Assembly: GCA_964426845.1 (NCBI GenBank)
Contig: CAYRSA010000002.1
Location: forward strand, 34,495-98,494
DNA from: an uncultured Candidatus Saccharibacteria bacterium
GTDB lineage: Bacteria; Patescibacteriota; Saccharimonadia; Saccharimonadales; JAGQNJ01
Length of the DNA stretch: 64,000 bases
Direction: 5' to 3'
Below, piece by piece: positions 5,311 through 51,169 of this stretch. Under the pieces are notes generated by a model. That model worked only from the letters and a program-made list of their open reading frames with translations, searched no databases and was not told where the DNA came from. The translations under genes and the position numbers were made by a program. Each line of letters starts with the position of its first letter. The stretch's first letter is position 1.

Positions 5311-5889
5311 TTATTTTCCTTGCAGAGCCTGTTTAACTCGATCTTCGGTCGACAATTTTTTATCAACACCTTGCAGAGCCAACATGGCATCGGTGTGTTC
5401 ATAACCCAAAGCCACCAGGGCTTGGACGGCTTCATCACCTTGGTTAACGCCGCTACGCATGGCCACATCTTCGGCGCCCGAGCCCGCCACCACCCCAACC
5501 TTATCGCGTAGTTCAACGATGATTTGCTCGGCCGCTCGTTTGCCGACACCCTTAGCGGTTTGCAAGGTCTTAACCTCCCCCGAGGCAATCGCTGTCCGCA
5601 CATATTCTTCGTTGCCAATGTCTAGTACCGCCAAGGCTACTTTTGGACCAACATTCTTGACGCTCAACAACTGCTCAAATAACTCCTTGGTGGCCTGCTT
5701 GCGAAAACCAAACAAGTCATGCGAGGTTTCGCGGATGTGCTCATGAACAAAAACTTTAGCCTTCTCGCCTTTTACCAAGCTGGCAAAGTCATCGCTTGTT
5801 ACCAGTAAGCCATAACCGACACCGCCCACGTCCAGCACCACCGAGTCTAAAGACTTGGCGCTGACCATACCCTCGAGTGTCGCAATCAT
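5311..5889 (-). CDS. ruvA: Holliday junction DNA-binding protein RuvA
   Basis: MIATLEGMV...VLDVGGVGY OB fold, followed by HhH motifs (VKNVGPKVA, AKGVGKRAAE). Confidence 0.92.
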   Translation of the reverse strand: MIATLEGMVSAKSLDSVVLDVGGVGYGLLVTSDDFASLVKGEKAKVFVHEHIRETSHDLFGFRKQATKELFEQLLSVKNVGPKVALAVLDIGNEEYVRTAIASGEVKTLQTAKGVGKRAAEQIIVELRDKVGVVAGSGAEDVAMRSGVNQGDEAVQALVALGYEHTDAMLALQGVDKKLSTEDRVKQALQGK

Positions 5890-5896
5890 TACTATA

Positions 5897-6367
5897 TTAT
5901 CGCATATTCATCGAACAGGTGATAGCACAGGCCAGAGCGTCAGCCGCATCATCTGGCTTTGGAACCACCTTGAGTTTCAGTACAGTTCGGACCATTTCCT
6001 GGATCTGAGCTTTGGTAGCTTTGCCATACCCAGTTAAGCCTTGTTTGATCTGCATCGGTGTAAATTCGTAAAGTTCCATCTTGTGTTGCTTGCCAAGTAA
6101 AAGAACCACACCGCGGGCCTGAGAGACTGACATAGCCGTAGTAACATTCTTGGCAAAAAATAACTTTTCGACGGCCATGACTGACGGCTTGCACTCAGCA
6201 ATAACTTCGCTCAGTTCGTTAAAGATCGTCTCTAGACGATCGGAGTCAGCTTGGTGAACCGGCGTTTTAATCACGCCAGCGTCGACCAGCTTCAATTGGC
6301 CGTTCTCGACATCTATAACGCCAAAGCCCAAAATGCCAGTGCCGGGGTCGATTCCTAAAATTCTCAT
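5897..6367 (-). CDS. ruvC: crossover junction endodeoxyribonuclease RuvC
   Basis: MRILGIDPGTGILGFG N-terminus, and its position upstream of ruvA-ruvB. Confidence 0.92.
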   Translation of the reverse strand: MRILGIDPGTGILGFGVIDVENGQLKLVDAGVIKTPVHQADSDRLETIFNELSEVIAECKPSVMAVEKLFFAKNVTTAMSVSQARGVVLLLGKQHKMELYEFTPMQIKQGLTGYGKATKAQIQEMVRTVLKLKVVPKPDDAADALACAITCSMNMR

Positions 6368-29191: not shown

Positions 29192-31063
29192 TTAGTACAA
29201 TGCGGCGGTTTTCGGCATGCGTGAGCCTTTGAGGATTTCCAGGACTTCCTCAGCTTCGACGGTTTCTTTCTTAATCAGTGCGTCTTTTAGAGCTTCCAGA
29301 GTCGTGCGGTTAGCCTTGATGACCTCACGAGCCCGACGAGCAGCTTCGGAGATCAATGACTCAATCTCGTCATCAATGATCTTGGCTGTGTCTTCGGAAT
29401 ATTGGCGCTCGTGCATTAGTTTATCCATCATAATGCCTTCATCGCTGTGAAAGACTTGGTCGCGCAACTTCTTACCCATGCCCTGTTCAGTGACCATATC
29501 GCGGGCCAGCTCGGCGGCTTTTTGCAGGTCGCTGCCGGCACCGGTGGTTACTCGATCCGGACCATAGATAACCTCCTCGGCTACTCGTCCGCCCAGCATT
29601 CGGGCCAGCACATCTTTGAACTCAATAATACTGTGGTAGCTCTTATCTTCTGGCGGAATGAACCAAGTTACGCCGCCTGTGCCACCACGGGGAATAATAG
29701 TCACCTTGTGTACCATATCGCTGTCTGGCAAGACGTGGCCGACAATAGCGTGGCCAGCTTCGTGGTAAGCCGTCAGTTCCTTCTCGTGTTGGCTCATCAC
29801 TTTCGATTTGCGCTCTGGTCCAATGGCTACTTTTTCGAAAGCTTCGGTTATGTCGTGCTGGCTTATTTCCTTGCGGTTGTGCCGGGCCGCAATAATGGCC
29901 GCCTCGTTGATAATATTCGCTAGATCCGCGCCCGATGTGCCGGCCGTTTTGGCCGCCAGCGCGTCTAGGTCAACTGATTTAGCAAAAGGCTTCTTGGCGG
30001 CGTGGACATTCAAAATTGCTTCGCGGTCCTTACGGTCTGGCAGGCCAATGTTAACCCGGCGGTCAAAACGACCAGGGCGGAGCAGGGCAGGGTCCAGCAC
30101 GTCAGCTCGGTTGGTGGCGGCCAGCACAATCACATTAACGCCTTGTTCAAAGCCGTCCATTTCTACCAAAATCTGATTCAAAGTCTGTTCGCGTTCATCG
30201 TGGCCACCGCCCATGCCCGAGCCGCGTTTGCGACCGACAGCGTCAATCTCATCGACGAAAATAATGCACGGTGCATTCTTCTTGGCCTTAGCGAACAAAT
30301 CACGAACACGAGAGGCACCGACACCGACAAACATTTCTACGAACTCTGATCCGGAAATACTGAAAAATGGCACACCGGCTTCCCCGGCTACAGCCCGAGC
30401 CAACATAGTCTTACCAGTTCCCGGTGGCCCTACTAGTAATACGCCCTTAGGAATCTTGGCTCCAACTGACTCGAACTTCTTCGGGAACTTCAAAAACTCC
30501 ACAACTTCTTCTAGGTCTTGTTTGGCCTCTTCGGTACCAGCGATATCTTTGAAAACCACCTTGTCCTTCTCGTTGCCATATAACCGAGCCTTAGACTTGC
30601 CAAAACTCATAGCCTGATTACCTTGGCCCTGAGCACTACGAAGCATAAAGAATAAGAATCCAGCGATGAAAATGACTGGAATTACTGATATGCCGACGTT
30701 CAACCAGGTGTTGCTACTGTTGCTGACTGGCTTGTTGATAATCTCAACCTCTTTGTTAGTCAGACCTTGCTCATAGATGCTAGAGCCAGTTTCTTTGCGC
30801 GATTCTTCGGAGGCTACGTCCTCGCCCTTTTTAGTGACAGTCAATTCGTCGCCGGTGATAACAATAGTCTTAACTTCGCCACGGTTGGCTCGGTTAACCA
30901 CATCGTTGAAAGGAACTTCCTTGAGGGTGCTAGGCTTCTGGTAAGCCGCATAGCCAACCAGGCCGATTAACACAATCAGAGCTATAAAGCCAAAGTTCCG
31001 GAAGCCCCGCCGCTTGGCATAGTCATTGGGTTTCTTGTTCTTGTTAAACGGCTTGTTATCCAT
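29192..31063 (-). CDS. ftsH: ATP-dependent zinc metalloprotease FtsH
   Basis: Two TM helices, AAA+ motif GPPGTGKT, second region of homology (SRH), and the HEAGH zinc site. Confidence 0.98.
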
Positions 31064-32414: not shown

Positions 32415-33347
32415 CTATACACTGTTAATCGCTATTTTGGTAGGCTCAATACACACAAACTTCTGGCCCAAGCTGATTTTTTTGCCCGGTGGCAAGGTTT
32501 TGACCGCCACCACTAGTTGGTCAATCAGCCGACGATCGATTTCCTGCACCTCGTTTTCTCTAAGCCAAGCCGCCATCACTTCTGAAGACACATAGTAGGG
32601 GAGAGCGATAAACTTCTTGCGATCTATACCCTGCCCGATTCGCAAATCTTGTAGTTGAGCCCTCACAGCCTCGTCCAACACCTGGTTTCGGACCTTAGCC
32701 GCGGAATATGACTCAGTCAGTTCCCTCTTCTGCTTTTTACTCAACCGGGGGAGTAGCTTCCGCCTAATCCAGTTGCGGGTGTACTTTTCGTCAGCGTTAG
32801 TACTGTCCTCCCGCCACAGCAAGTTATTAGCCCTGGCGTACTCGTAAATGTCCTTTTTGGTATAGCCCAGCAGCGGCCGAATAATACCGTCAGTTGATTG
32901 TAGGGATGACATCCCTTTCCGCCTGGTACCTCTAAGGACATTGAAAGCCAAAGTTTCAACCGCATCATCTTGATGATGAGCTAAAATCACCCCAGTTGCA
33001 TTATGCTTATTGCGAATCTGTTGCAGAAATTCATGGCGCGCTTGCCGGGCCGCATCTTCACTAACACCGGAACCCAGCTTTCCCTCTTTAAATTCATACT
33101 TTAGTCCATGTTTCTGAGATAAAGTCGCAACTAATTGTTGGTCCTCTGTTGAGTCGTCACGGATCCCGTGATCAAAATGTGCCACCACCAGTTCCAGCTC
33201 CGGTTGTTTCACCAACAAATCCAGCAACACCACCGAATCCACGCCACCCGACACGGCTACCACATACTTGCCAGGCGGCAAGGCCAAGTTCTTAGATGAC
33301 AAATTACTCATATTACCGCTTATTGTATCAGCCGTCTTGTTGGGCAA
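32415..33347 (-). CDS. tilS: tRNA(Ile)-lysidine synthase TilS
   Basis: PP-loop VAVSGGVDS and HFDHG.R. An ATG at 33311 is an alternative start. Confidence 0.9.
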   Translation of the reverse strand: MPNKTADTISGNMSNLSSKNLALPPGKYVVAVSGGVDSVVLLDLLVKQPELELVVAHFDHGIRDDSTEDQQLVATLSQKHGLKYEFKEGKLGSGVSEDAARQARHEFLQQIRNKHNATGVILAHHQDDAVETLAFNVLRGTRRKGMSSLQSTDGIIRPLLGYTKKDIYEYARANNLLWREDSTNADEKYTRNWIRRKLLPRLSKKQKRELTESYSAAKVRNQVLDEAVRAQLQDLRIGQGIDRKKFIALPYYVSSEVMAAWLRENEVQEIDRRLIDQLVVAVKTLPPGKKISLGQKFVCIEPTKIAINSV

Positions 33348-34527: not shown

Positions 34528-34604
34528 TGGTGTCGGTGGTTGGAATTGAACCAACGACCTCAGGCTTATGAGTCCTGCGCTCTAACCAACTGAGCTACAC
34601 CGAC
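34528..34604 (-). tRNA. tRNA with anticodon CAU, probably elongator tRNA-Met, CCA encoded
   Basis: The reverse complement folds as GTCGGTG-TA-GCTC-AGTTGGTTA-GAGC-G-CAGGA-CTCATAA-GCCTG-AGGTC-GTTGG-TTCAATT-CCAAC-CACCGAC-A-CCA. The G1-C72 pair rules out an initiator. Confidence 0.85.
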
Positions 34605-47736: not shown

Positions 47737-47921
47737 TGGTGGCGATAAAGCGAAGACTTTTGAACCTTTGGAGTCTATTGTGGAGTGGCTGATTTCTAAC
47801 CCTAATCCTGCGTGGTCAAAGCAGCTGAAAGAAGCTAGCTACGTAAAGATCGAACAGGGTTGGCGTTACTAGAAAAGAGTAAGATAAAGAGCGTTGAACC
47901 TAACCACTTGCTATTACTTGT
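47737..47921 (+). repeat. 185-nt module, copy 1 (contains a 44-codon frame at 47738-47872 with no start codon)
   Basis: Aligns end-to-end with 49022-49214. Identical blocks are TGGTGGCGATAAAGCGAAGA and AGAGTAAGATAAAGAGCGTTGAACCT. Confidence 0.85.
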
Positions 47922-47994
47922 AAGTGGTGATAAAGTATTTTCTATTATGATATTCAGCCAGAAGCACCAGTTGGAACTATTCCTCAGCCTACAT

Positions 47995-48080
47995 GGGCTG
48001 TGCTTCACTATGGTTGAAGCCACTGAGTAAAACTCAGTCAGCACAGCCCCAATAACAGGCTTCAACCGAAGTCTGTTTTT
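47995..48080 (+). promoter_or_regulatory. attenuator/riboswitch-like leader with mutually exclusive helices
   Basis: A:A' is 10 bp (47995-48004 / 48040-48049). B:B' is 10 bp (48012-48021 / 48058-48067). Hairpin C is at 48022-48038. A terminator-like hairpin at 48054-48077 reuses B' and is followed by a T-rich run. Confidence 0.45.
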
Positions 48081-48099
48081 AATTGTAAGGAGAAATGAA

Positions 48100-48282
48100 A
48101 TGTACGGAGAAGGATACCCTGCTCGTAAAGCAGTAGAAGTAGAGCACATCAGTGATGGTGTGTACGTCTGGTATGACCCAGATGAATATGGAATTGGTCA
48201 TGAACACTATGGAGAGCAACACCCAGCCATGACAGAACAAGGTCAACCTGACCAGGATCAAACAACAAACGAGGTACAATAA
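48100..48282 (+). CDS. small acidic His/Glu-rich protein (60 aa)
   Basis: AAGGAG RBS 8 nt upstream. It ends 15 nt before alaX. Confidence 0.55.
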   Translation: MYGEGYPARKAVEVEHISDGVYVWYDPDEYGIGHEHYGEQHPAMTEQGQPDQDQTTNEVQ

Positions 48283-48297
48283 TACAAAGGAGTGTAT

Positions 48298-49017
48298 ATG
48301 ACAGAACTAATCTACATGAACGATTTCGACGTAGTTACTTGTGAAGCCAGCGTTGTCAAAACAGAAGAGCACGAAGGCAAAGATGTAATCGTATTGGATC
48401 AGACGTGCTTCTATGCCAAGGGTGGCGGTCAGGACTTTGACCAGGGTGTCATTAAGTCAGAGGACGTAGAGTTTCAAGTTGAAGCTGTCTTCTTTGTAGA
48501 CGGCGAAGTGAAACATATTGGATCATATACTACTGGCAAGTTTGCAGTCGGAGATAAAGTCGCTTGTGAGGTTGATGTAGAAAGACGCAACCTCAATAGT
48601 CGACTTCACTCAGCTGGTCATGTGATAGATATGGCAGTACGAGAGTTGGGATGGGATTGGAAACCAGGCAAAGGTGCACACTATCCTCACATGGCTTTTG
48701 TGGAGTACGAAGGTCCTTACGACGCCGAGGAAAAGCAAAAACTCATAGAGCAGTTACAAGATACTCTTACCAAGATGATTAAAGCTGGCTCTACTAACAG
48801 CATTAAGTTTATGACACCAGAAGAGATGGCTGAGACTGGAGCATTTGTGCCTGATAACTTACCAAAGGGTAAGCCGTCACGAGCAGTCTTCTATGATGAC
48901 TTTGCTGTTCCTTGCGGAGGCACGCATGTTAAAGACATTAAAGATATTGGTTCGGCAACTATAACTAATATGAAGCGAAAAGATGGCAATGTGCGAGTCA
49001 GTTACAAGGTTGACTAG
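48298..49017 (+). CDS. alaX: AlaX-type Ala-tRNA(Ser/Gly) editing protein (free-standing AlaRS editing domain)
   Basis: HSAGH (HxxxH) and CGGTH (CxxxH) zinc motifs; about 240 aa. AAAGGAG sits 5 nt before the ATG at 48298, whereas the ORF track starts at a GTG at 48292. Confidence 0.8.
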   Translation: MTELIYMNDFDVVTCEASVVKTEEHEGKDVIVLDQTCFYAKGGGQDFDQGVIKSEDVEFQVEAVFFVDGEVKHIGSYTTGKFAVGDKVACEVDVERRNLNSRLHSAGHVIDMAVRELGWDWKPGKGAHYPHMAFVEYEGPYDAEEKQKLIEQLQDTLTKMIKAGSTNSIKFMTPEEMAETGAFVPDNLPKGKPSRAVFYDDFAVPCGGTHVKDIKDIGSATITNMKRKDGNVRVSYKVD

Positions 49018-49021
49018 TCTT

Positions 49022-49214
49022 TGGTGGCGATAAAGCGAAGAGTTTTGAACTTTTGGCTGGTGTCGTAAACTGGCTGATAGATAACCCTAATCCTGACTGG
49101 AACTTACAGCTTAGAGAAGCCAGTAAAGTTTCTACCGAACAGAGTTGGCGATACTAAAGAAGAGTAAGATAAAGAGCGTTGAACCTCTAATGCTTGCTAC
49201 TTGTCGCCCAGACA
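49022..49214 (+). repeat. 185-nt module, copy 2 (contains a 44-codon frame at 49023-49157 with no start codon)
   Basis: See copy 1. Confidence 0.85.
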
Positions 49215-49245
49215 ACTATATTAAGGATGAAATAAGGAGGAATAC

Positions 49246-49920
49246 ATGGCAGAGCCAACACTAGAAGTAGCGAGAGGTGGATTAGTACCCGTAGCAGCAG
49301 CTATCGAACAACCCTTAAGAGATGGTCATAATCTCCACGCCTTCCAGTCTGGTGGCGGTCTTAGAGTAATCCGCATAGAAGATGCGGCCGAAGAATTAGT
49401 CGGTTATGGTGAAGCCCTTCAAGTAGAAGAGGCTCTCGCTCATGCTGCTCTAGATTACTTACTCGGTCATGAAGATTACGACCAACAATATAATGGCGAT
49501 GGTGCGAGATACCCACACTACCTGACAGGTACAACGGAGGTAAGTTCTCCCCTCGACGGTCACTTACGACGTGGAGCAACCTTTGACGCTTATAAGTCTC
49601 GTACAAGCGACCTAATTGTCTGTTCACTTGCTGGCATATCTTTCCCACCAGACATCCCTGAGGGAATGCAAGAACGAGTGGTTGCATCTATGGACGTAGA
49701 AACCTTTGAAGAACGTGGCATAACCTATCAAGCAGAACCTTACCAGTTCCCAGGCAATGGAGAATGGGGTATCTCAGTCAAAGTTATCGATAATCCTAAA
49801 GGTATTTCAACCATGTCTTATCGCTACACCAAGACTGGTGAAGGCGATACTTTTGAAAAAGCTGTGAGAGAAGCGTTTGAAGCTCCTGAGGTCGAGCTTA
49901 TGGACGAACAGGAAGATTAG
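49246..49920 (+). CDS. hypothetical acidic protein (224 aa)
   Basis: AAGGAGG RBS 6 nt upstream. No recognisable motif. Confidence 0.6.
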   Translation: MAEPTLEVARGGLVPVAAAIEQPLRDGHNLHAFQSGGGLRVIRIEDAAEELVGYGEALQVEEALAHAALDYLLGHEDYDQQYNGDGARYPHYLTGTTEVSSPLDGHLRRGATFDAYKSRTSDLIVCSLAGISFPPDIPEGMQERVVASMDVETFEERGITYQAEPYQFPGNGEWGISVKVIDNPKGISTMSYRYTKTGEGDTFEKAVREAFEAPEVELMDEQED

Positions 49921-50097
49921 TCGCTAAATCTAGCTTGTACGAAGCCAAATTGACCTCAAAAGACGTCGCACAATAACGATTGGATGACCAACACATACAG
50001 GGGTGACGAGCTTGTTTTTCCAGAAAAAGGCAAAGTCAAGGCCTGATCAGTTTTGTCCCACCCCTGTTAAAAACCTATTATGCCATATGGAAATTCG

Positions 50098-50437
50098 TGG
50101 TGGGGCGAGAAGGAATTGAACCTTCGACCAATCAGTTATGCTTACCACTACAACTTTCGTTGCCTCTTTCGTGTTTGTGGTCTGGACTGTCTCTTCGTCC
50201 GCTGGTTAGCGGATGCCTGCCGTTCAGTCTCTACACCTTTCCTGGTTAAACCGGGACTTGGCTCGGGATTACCAATCTTATTAAAGATAAGGCTTCCCCG
50301 AATTTGACAGGATATACTTACCGGTTACCCGCGTAAGCAGCCCTAAACATTTTGGCATATCTAACACAGAATATGGGCTTAGACTTAGCCAAATTGTTAA
50401 CTCAAGCCGACTGCTCTAACCACTGAGCTACCGCCCC
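50098..50437 (-). tRNA. tRNA with anticodon CAU interrupted by a group I intron; non-initiator, possibly tRNA-Ile2 (lysidine)
   Basis: The exons (50437-50405 and 50140-50098) join into a 76-nt cloverleaf: GGGGCGG-TA-GCTC-AGTGGTTA-GAGC-A-GTCGG-CT|CATAA-CTGAT-TGGTC-GAAGG-TTCAATT-CCTTC-TCGCCCC-A-CCA. Confidence 0.85.
50141..50404 (-). ncRNA. group I intron (IC3-like, 264 nt, no ORF) in the anticodon loop between U33 and C34
   Basis: It follows an exonic U and ends in G. Core blocks UGUCAAAUUCGGGGAAGCC, CCCGAGCCAAGUCC and GAAAGGUGUAGAGACUGAACGGCAGG resemble the bacterial tRNA-intron catalytic core. Confidence 0.8.
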
Positions 50438-50507
50438 TTAATTCTCGTCGACCTTCACAGGTTCGAACACAGGGAAGTATAACAGAGCGCAGATAGGTTG
50501 AGTAGTG

Positions 50508-51071
50508 TTACCGCGCCGGTTTCAGCAACTCTGCCCACCACTTCAGGTTATCAACCAATCCATCAACCTTGCCGCGAATAAATGTTTCGTCGATTTCACC
50601 CTCTGGGCTAATGCCGTTCCAAGGCTCTAACAAGCCAACAAATGTTTTTGTCAGAGGAACCATGCCTACTTTAGCTGTAATATTTGTCAGTTGCTCAACC
50701 GCTCGGGTCGCCCCGTAAGTACCATAGCCAACAAAGGCCACGGGTTTCTTGTCCCACTCGTTATATATGCTGTCGATAGCGTTCTTCAGTGGCGCTGGTG
50801 GCCCATTGTTATACTCGGCCGTCACAAAGACAAAGCCATCTAGACTGTCGATCTTGGCACTCCACTTCTTGCTAGATTCTAGTTCATACTTACCACTGGA
50901 CGGCGACTCTTTTTCCATTAAGAATGACAGGTCCCATTCCTTAAGATCGATAAGCTCGAACTCGGCACCCTCGGTACCTGAAACTTTTTCTATAAACCAT
51001 TCCGCCACGTGTCGGCCAGACCGGGTAGGGCGGGTAGTGCTGACAATTACTCCGATTTTTACGCTCATCAA
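50508..51071 (-). CDS. NADPH-dependent FMN reductase family oxidoreductase
   Basis: Flavodoxin-like fold pattern (I.VI..STR..R....VA.W, EYN...P..LKNAID). Confidence 0.8.
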   Translation of the reverse strand: MMSVKIGVIVSTTRPTRSGRHVAEWFIEKVSGTEGAEFELIDLKEWDLSFLMEKESPSSGKYELESSKKWSAKIDSLDGFVFVTAEYNNGPPAPLKNAIDSIYNEWDKKPVAFVGYGTYGATRAVEQLTNITAKVGMVPLTKTFVGLLEPWNGISPEGEIDETFIRGKVDGLVDNLKWWAELLKPAR

Positions 51072-51169
51072 TCAATCCTCTCAGTTATACTAATCAAATT
51101 ACTTCTGTTCACTTTACTAAGTATAGTTACTTACTATATTTTGTAAAGTCTTTTTTGTATAATATTCTT

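Follow-up and report, generated by a model that had tools for sequence, protein, structure and literature searches.

A 64,000-nucleotide (nt) stretch of contig CAYRSA010000002.1 from an uncultured Candidatus Saccharibacteria bacterium, referred to below as the window, carries on its minus strand a transfer RNA (tRNA) gene with anticodon CAU that is interrupted between U33 and C34. In our reading, to which we assign a probability of about 0.8, the gene encodes tRNA-Ile2(CAU) and the interruption is a 264-nt group I intron without an open reading frame (ORF), which belongs to an IC3-like family found at the 33/34 position of CAU tRNAs. The subgroup label is adopted from homology to published IC3 members, not from a classifier.

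The preliminary description of this DNA had joined 50437-50405 and 50140-50098 of the minus strand into a CAU cloverleaf, and both the sequence itself and ARAGORN bear this out. The 5′ exon (GGGGCGGTAGCTCAGTGGTTAGAGCAGTCGGCT, 33 nt) and the 3′ exon (CATAACTGATTGGTCGAAGGTTCAATTCCTTCTCGCCCCACCA, 43 nt) together give a 76-nt tRNA(CAT) with a complete cloverleaf, whose stems contain only standard and G.U pairs and whose CCA end is encoded. The 264 nt between them, as also described before, begin directly after the exonic U33 and end with the G at 50141; intron positions p convert to window coordinates as 50405-p. The split locus is not an assembly artefact, since an independently assembled Logan contig (L243, run SRR14932609), found by a public-assembly look-up via the neighbouring 224-amino-acid ORF, is 100% identical to window 48055-51163, the whole split gene included. 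Another Logan contig (L244, run SRR14932608) corresponds to window 47742-50138 and ends 2-3 nt inside the 3′ exon, beside the 3′ splice site, whereas L243 continues uninterrupted through the split gene. A branch in the assembly graph, e.g. from co-occurring intron-plus and intron-minus alleles or from similar introns, could explain why L244 stops at the intron boundary. A look-up of the upstream FMN-reductase protein returned no record in public assemblies, probably owing to a different start codon.

The intervening sequence was matched by the Rfam group I intron model RF00028 at 50358-50168 (minus strand) with 61.5 bits against a gathering score of 50 and an E value of 3.6e-13, computed over the whole 64-kb window and all 4227 Rfam families, which is far beyond chance. 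The fold was derived from the intron sequence, guided by the published seed alignment of bacterial tRNA introns (Williams 2020, bioRxiv 10.1101/2020.01.27.920355), and was assessed on an alignment (A1) of 23 ORF-less homologues in the same tRNA type, in which the window intron aligns with 22 Ile2-hosted homologues. On A1, 89.2% of the cells of the P1-P9 fold are paired, versus 31-47% when the partners are slid by 1-3 columns, compensatory (two-sided) changes occur in 45 of 71 pairs, and 0 of 500 shuffles attained the observed pairing and covariation values. The minimum free energy (MFE) fold of the intron alone (-78.9 kcal/mol, z = -2.8) recovers P1x, P2, P3, P4-P6, P8 and P9. The covariance scan and the covariation of P1-P9 both support the group I assignment made in the preliminary description, and the three core blocks that it had pointed out are present at intron 96-114, 138-151 and 164-189, where they match the Azoarcus-type seed Aol6.Ile2.5Ug (Williams 2020).

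In P3 (94-99 with 184-189), pairing reaches 100% and 5 of 6 pairs covary; this helix forms the pseudoknot by crossing P7 (174-179 with 217-221, with a bulged A), all five pairs of which are invariant in 23 of 23 sequences. P4 (103-108 with 138-143) is 97.8% paired, P5/P5a occupies 112-134, and within P6/P6a (144-169) the two parts are 100% and 94% paired. For P8 the value is 82%, with compensatory changes, and for P9 91%; P9b reaches 100% with all four of its pairs covarying, and all sequences of the alignment have the omega-G before the 3′ splice site. The outer two pairs of P2 are likewise 100% paired, while its inner part, which aligns poorly across phyla, is at 60%. By homology, the intron is predicted to be catalytic and to splice itself out in a guanosine-dependent manner. 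The ORF check across the split gene found no endonuclease ORF inside the window intron. The sole ORF there is a 63-amino-acid frame on the antisense strand that crosses the conserved ribozyme core and the 3′ exon; it has equivalents in relatives and is taken as spurious. A weak Rfam match on the plus strand at the split gene, "Plastid-ycf2 5′UTR", may reflect antisense similarity to plastid trnI-CAU-like sequence.

P1 is formed by exon C29-G30-G31-C32-U33 and intron U1 with the internal guide sequence G62-G67, and places a U33.G63 wobble at the 5′ splice site. This U-1.G pair is present in 23 of 23 homologues, covariation with the guide sequence is compensatory at exon position -3 (AU in 14, GC in 9), and the +1 pair is CG in 12 and UG in 11. 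These comparative counts displace the P1 proposed earlier, in which the exon GGCU would pair with a GGCU tract at intron 15-18: only 62% of its cells are paired over the 23 homologues, and 313 of 500 shuffles equal it. The tract is one strand of the P1-extension stem, whose helices are 87-96% paired with compensatory changes. In the loop of this extension, where relatives hold an endonuclease gene, only about 20 nt remain in the window copy. Within the stem, GGCUAAG...UAUGCC (50384-50390 and 50354-50359, minus strand) is similar to the 11-nt receptor for GAAA tetraloops (CCUAAG/UAUGG), which Acidobacteriota homologues have in its canonical form, CCUAAG...UAUGG. The GAAA loops of P9a and P9b could dock at this receptor-like motif.

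Table 1 Window coordinates of the split tRNA gene, the parts of its intron and the genes used for isotype assignment
Feature	Coordinates	Strand	Basis
5′ exon, tRNA positions 1-33, ends ...GUCGGCU33	50405..50437	-	Sequence; ARAGORN on joined exons
Group I intron, 264 nt, IC3-like by homology, without ORF	50141..50404	-	RF00028 match; A1 structure; 78-82% core identity to published 33/34 introns of CAU tRNAs
3′ exon, tRNA positions 34-76, CAUAA..., encoded CCA at 50100-50098	50098..50140	-	Sequence; ARAGORN on joined exons
P1-extension hairpin, intron 12-54, UUUGGC...GCCAAA	50351..50393	-	A1; MFE fold; comparison with L113, L029 and L082
Internal guide sequence GGGCUG, intron 62-67, directly 5′ of P2	50338..50343	-	A1 covariation
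P2, intron 68-88, CUUAC-G-CGG GUAA CCG GUAAG, GNRA loop (GUAA)	50317..50337	-	MFE fold; A1
P3 5′ strand (94-99) and P4-P5-P6 domain (103-170)	50235..50311	-	A1
Catalytic core: P7 5′ GAGACU (174-179), P3 3′ (184-189), P8 (192-207), J8/7, P7 3′ AGUCC (217-221)	50184..50231	-	A1
P9 domain (224-261), two GAAA-capped hairpins, terminal omega-G (G264 = 50141)	50141..50181	-	A1
Elongator-type tRNA-Met(CAU), C3-G70, A31xG39 mismatch	34528..34604	-	Rfam tRNA model/ARAGORN; Silva 2006 discriminator
Initiator tRNA-fMet, C1xA72, A11-U24, G12-C23	35159..35233	+	tRNA finders; Silva 2006 discriminators
tilS, 310 amino acids, short form	32415..33347	-	TIGR02432 lysidine_TilS_N, 174.5 bits versus cut-off 93.6; Pfam PF01171

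As three kinds of tRNA share the CAU anticodon, the isotype was called by the published discriminator rules of Silva et al. 2006 (PMC1635315). Under these rules, a CAU tRNA with G3 or A3 and C70 or U70 can be neither tRNA-Met nor tRNA-fMet and is thus marked as tRNA-Ile(CAT). The split gene has the pairs G1-C72, G3-C70, G4-C69, C5-G68, C11-G24 and U12-A23, and its G3-C70 fits the identity set of tRNA-Ile(CAT) and not those of Met and fMet. That the gene is no initiator, as claimed before on G1-C72, is borne out by this pair together with C11-G24 and by a separate true initiator gene in the window. The suggestion that it may encode tRNA-Ile2, the substrate of TilS, likewise gains support from G3-C70, the separate C3-G70 elongator-type tRNA(CAU) and the presence of tilS in the window. 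AUA accounts for 218 of 18,973 codons in the window (11.5 per 1000); with tilS encoded and AUA in use, a tRNA-Ile2 gene is required, and no candidate other than the split gene is visible within the 64 kb. The three CAU tRNAs and tilS all lie inside 18 kb, and tilS, which is without the long C-terminal extension of E. coli TilS, adjoins ftsH (29192-31063, minus strand).

Comparison with other genomes points the same way. The exact 26-nt core of the 5′ exon was found in at least 120 metagenomic contigs; the CAU tRNAs among them (about 100) all have G3, and many have the canonical C4-G69/C5-G68 acceptor of tRNA-Ile2. Homologous split genes of Acidobacteriota have been published as Ile2 (PMC13011429), and Burkholderiales members of the intron family fit the description of B. 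cenocepacia tRNA-Ile2 (G3:C70, 11-nt D-loop). A BLAST search of the joined tRNA and of the tRNA at 34604-34528 against annotated E. coli genomes gave tRNA-Lys, tRNA-Asn and tRNA-Thr as top matches and was uninformative. Given G3-C70, the separate CAU tRNAs, the published Ile2 homologues, tilS and the use of AUA, the split gene was assigned to the AUA-reading tRNA-Ile2(CAU), an assignment that we consider likely, with the G4-C69 pair as a main reservation.

The preliminary description had contrasted the insertion site with that of Azoarcus. The difference itself stands (33/34 versus 36/37), but the site is not unusual, since it is the classical fMet.2Ug site and Ile2 introns at 33/34 are already published. 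The fMet.2Ug type (33/34) is one of the four classical bacterial tRNA intron types, with Met.2Ug and Ile2.2Ug among the new ones (Williams 2020), and "Ile2 (CAT) 33/34" IC3 introns appear in Table S5 of PMC13011429, e.g. in Acidobacteriota GCA_016700075.1. Core identity to the window intron is 82% for the fMet.2Ug seed (Tpc1), 78% for the Ile2 33/34 intron of Acidobacteriota (PMC13011429), 76% for the Met.2Ug seed and 62% for the Azoarcus-type 36/37 intron; the Williams seed labelled Ile2.2Ug (Gba28) represents a more distant lineage at 69%. The Ile2 and fMet 33/34 introns compared from Table S5 are labelled IC3 there. The exact exon or intron sequence had no match in the part of the PMC13011429 supplementary tables that was searched.

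With the published Ile2 33/34 introns (Williams 2020; PMC13011429) the window intron shares the host tRNA type, the site, U-1, omega-G, the layout of P1 with the guide sequence beside P2, the P1-extension hairpin and nearly the same 3′ domain, ...AGUCCAGACCACAAAC...GAAAG...GGUAAG/CAUAA (slash, splice site; PMC13011429). It differs from them in host lineage, its nearest relatives being from metagenome-assembled genomes (MAGs) of Saccharibacteria, in the exon and guide sequences (GGCU and GGGCU in the window, GACU and GGGUU in the published introns) and in its short P2. The Azoarcus tRNA-Ile(CAU) intron (Ile2.5Ug, IC3; Reinhold-Hurek and Shub 1992) is alike in isoacceptor class, small size and the IC3-type core blocks P3-P4, J6/7 and P7-P3′-P8, but is inserted after U36 and is without a P1 extension. 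Patescibacteria tRNA introns in PMC13011429 are nearly all of subgroup IA, enriched at 35/36 in tRNA-Asn and tRNA-Asp, and self-splice in vitro. The window intron resembles them in its broad host group, in interrupting a tRNA gene that may be single-copy and in being missed by standard annotation tools; unlike them, it is IC3-like, sits at 33/34 and has tRNA-Ile2 as host. Only an IC3-like intron in a Patescibacteria host and the antisense HNH gene of its relatives, described below, are mildly unusual.

The classical tRNA-fMet intron of cyanobacteria was reportedly described by Biniszkiewicz, Cesnaviciene and Shub in 1994. It shares with the window intron the site CU/CAUAA, the intron family, a sporadic distribution and a homing endonuclease in some copies, whereas its host is an initiator (C1xA72, GGG/CCC anticodon stem). 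The published endonuclease of the cyanobacterial fMet introns is of the PD-(D/E)XK class (I-Ssp6803I type, PF11645), while the Ile2-hosted relatives of the window intron have an antisense HNH gene, so that the Ile2-hosted branch seems to have a homing enzyme of another kind.

To place the intron among its relatives, species-representative genomes were covered by one pattern scan with AGTCCRGACCACAAA...GGTNNGCATAA. At least 120 loci were found in Cyanobacteria, Acidobacteriota, Proteobacteria, Patescibacteria, Nitrospirota, Planctomycetota, Bacteroidota and others. Among the matches listed, the hosts are mostly initiator tRNAs, about one quarter being of the Ile2 type, and the closest relatives come from three Saccharibacteria/Saccharimonadales MAGs: L113 (83% identity to the window intron, with an identical 5′ exon), L029 (82%) and L082 (78% over the full length). 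The dus gene adjoins the split gene and is 60% identical to its homologue in L029; in L207 and L200, dus is directly followed downstream by an intron-less copy of the tRNA. About 99 of the contigs with the exon core have an intron-less gene and about 15 a gene interrupted at 33/34, and around the insertion site the intron-less tRNA-Ile2 gene reads ...GGCTCATAAC... Introns of the same family (3′ domain AGTCCAGACCACAAA...) were also seen at 33/34 of initiator tRNA genes in many Patescibacteria MAGs (L009, L013, L015, L019, L040, L046, L061, L065, L078, L080, L083, L110, L115, L120), in contrast with the statement, drawn from 95 complete genomes, that Patescibacteria introns are nearly all IA (PMC13011429).

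In the family, the ORF-less form of 245-300 nt is the commonest, and the copies in L113 (intron 5611-6205), L029 and many Acidobacteriota are about 600 nt long. Within the P1-extension loop, relatives (L113, L029, L053, L006, L103, L108, L164, L239) hold an ORF of 108-147 amino acids that is antisense to the tRNA and has the motifs CxxC...FHHL...CxNCHxExH. The antisense ORF was identified by PHROGs as an HNH endonuclease (E 2e-20); Pfam gave no significant HNH match on the relatives' intron ORFs, and a PDB profile search gave only a weak match to the LtrA endonuclease domain (E 0.024). A metagenomic locus with a 338-nt intron (L139) has a degraded HNH gene fragment between the receptor halves and is an intermediate between the forms of about 600 and about 255 nt. 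By comparison with these copies, the window intron is an endonuclease-less derivative of a mobile lineage. Such a distribution would be expected of a mobile intron that is propagated by homing, then loses its endonuclease and finally disappears as well.

On this basis, the following course of splicing and maturation can be proposed. A pre-tRNA would be transcribed off the minus strand, and its intron would fold into the P3-P9 core, with the 5′ exon end CGGCU and intron U1 paired to GGGCUG (62-67) as P1 and the U33.G63 wobble at the splice site. The first attack, after U33, would be made by a free guanosine nucleotide bound in P7; G264 would then occupy the G-site, and the 5′ exon would attack after G264, yielding the ligated ...CU/CAUAA... 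and an intact CUCAUAA anticodon loop. The predicted ligated product is ...GUCGGCU/CAUAACUGAU... Only after splicing would TilS lysidinylate C34 and isoleucyl-tRNA synthetase charge the tRNA. Homology suggests both that the gene is transcribed and that splicing comes before modification. It is reasonable to suppose that splicing must precede lysidinylation, because in the unspliced precursor the 264 nt of the intron would separate U33 from C34, and both nucleotides would be engaged by the guide sequence.

Several features weigh against a functional split tRNA-Ile2 gene. C5-G68 is present in the acceptor stem, but position 4-69 is G-C rather than C4-G69. P1 is weak, with wobble pairs at 3 of 6 positions, and so is P10; a strong P10 between CAUAAC and GUUUAG was considered and rejected, as it lacks conservation and is discontinuous in the window intron. 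Peripheral helices contain single mismatches (C152xA162 in P6a, A233xA240 in P9a, A191xC208 at the base of P8). Around the split gene, simple scans for sigma-70 promoters and for terminators found none on the minus strand, with results no better than shuffles. A second, uninterrupted tRNA-Ile2 gene may also be present outside the 64-kb window. As for P10, the exons are probably aligned by the anticodon stem, by analogy with the Anabaena pre-tRNA intron (Zaug et al. 1993 as cited in PMC13011429).

The acceptor stem bears on whether the host is instead an elongator tRNA-Met, in which case the same intron would give a spliced product that reads AUG. The encoded anticodon is CAU, and G4-C69 stands in place of a pair that, like C5-G68, is very frequent, not universal, in tRNA-Ile2 (Silva et al. 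2006, PMC1635315). Furthermore, "Met.2Ug" and "Met (CAU) 33/34" introns exist, Ile2 and Met are hard to separate in some phyla (Silva et al. 2006), and published tools disagree on some CAU tRNAs (PMC13011429). Nevertheless, we regard an elongator tRNA-Met as unlikely, given that, as reported, G3-C70 does not occur in Met and fMet tRNAs, that the exon core is identical to that of many tRNAs with C4-G69/C5-G68 acceptors, and that tilS and AUA use call for an Ile2 gene for which the window offers no other candidate. The Met function is already covered by the C3-G70 tRNA(CAU) at 34604-34528, which leaves the split gene as Ile2. The A31xG39 mismatch of the former leaves a 4-bp anticodon stem, a form most frequent in elongator tRNA-Met (27% of bacterial genes) according to a 2026 survey, which speculates that it permits some AUA reading by this tRNA (PMC13092985). 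C4-G69 and C5-G68 are determinants for E. coli TilS, C4-G69 being critical, and TilS determinants vary between species. Short TilS enzymes have been described as contacting the anticodon stem and not the acceptor stem, and the 310-amino-acid TilS of the window would fit the G4-C69 deviation of a tRNA-Ile2.

The remaining weak points would suit a decaying pseudogene that lost its endonuclease, accumulated mismatches and no longer splices, with the cell relying on another tRNA-Ile2 copy. Such a reading draws on the missing homing endonuclease ORF, the mismatches in P6a, P9a and the P8 base, the weak P1 and P10, the lack of a promoter-like site found near the gene and a view confined to 64 kb of the genome. 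We hold it to be very improbable, as the window intron retains all pairs of P3, P4, P6 and P7 along with the joining regions that do not vary among the 23 homologues, its exons join into a clean cloverleaf that has only standard and G.U pairs and ends in CCA, and ORF-less introns of 245-300 nt are the commonest in the family. Genomes of the host lineage are small, and their tRNA genes are usually single-copy, which also counts against a pseudogene. A chance resemblance, in which two tRNA-like halves flank a spurious covariance match, finds support in the failure of default ARAGORN and the Rfam tRNA model to call a tRNA at the locus and is refuted by the intron E value of 3.6e-13, the joined cloverleaf, exon ends that coincide exactly with U-1 and omega-G, the A1 covariation and dozens of homologous split genes with the same architecture.

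A functional split tRNA-Ile2 gene would acquire a further meaning if it were the only such gene in a reduced genome. Self-splicing would then be obligatory before TilS could act, and the intron would be a regulatory checkpoint and not a passive passenger, an idea that we find improbable. If it were true, intron folding and the guanosine-nucleotide pool would gate AUA decoding and the avoidance of a Met-accepting CAU intermediate.

The 33/34 site and Ile2-hosted introns at it are already known, and the understanding of group I introns is unchanged by this case; its main consequences are practical and concern annotation and the intron catalogue. Default ARAGORN and the Rfam tRNA model did not detect the split gene at 50098-50437. 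The intron mode of ARAGORN called a tRNA-Ser(GGA) with a 244-nt intron, with the outer ends right and the splice sites wrong. Owing to this failure of the tools at the split gene, automatic annotation would report the AUA decoder as lacking despite the presence of tilS. The intron adds an IC3-like, Ile2-hosted 33/34 member to a catalogue in which Patescibacteria tRNA introns are reported as almost all IA (PMC13011429). Together with its relatives, it outlines a cycle of homing-endonuclease gain and loss, from a full HNH gene through a degraded remnant and an ORF-less intron to an empty site.

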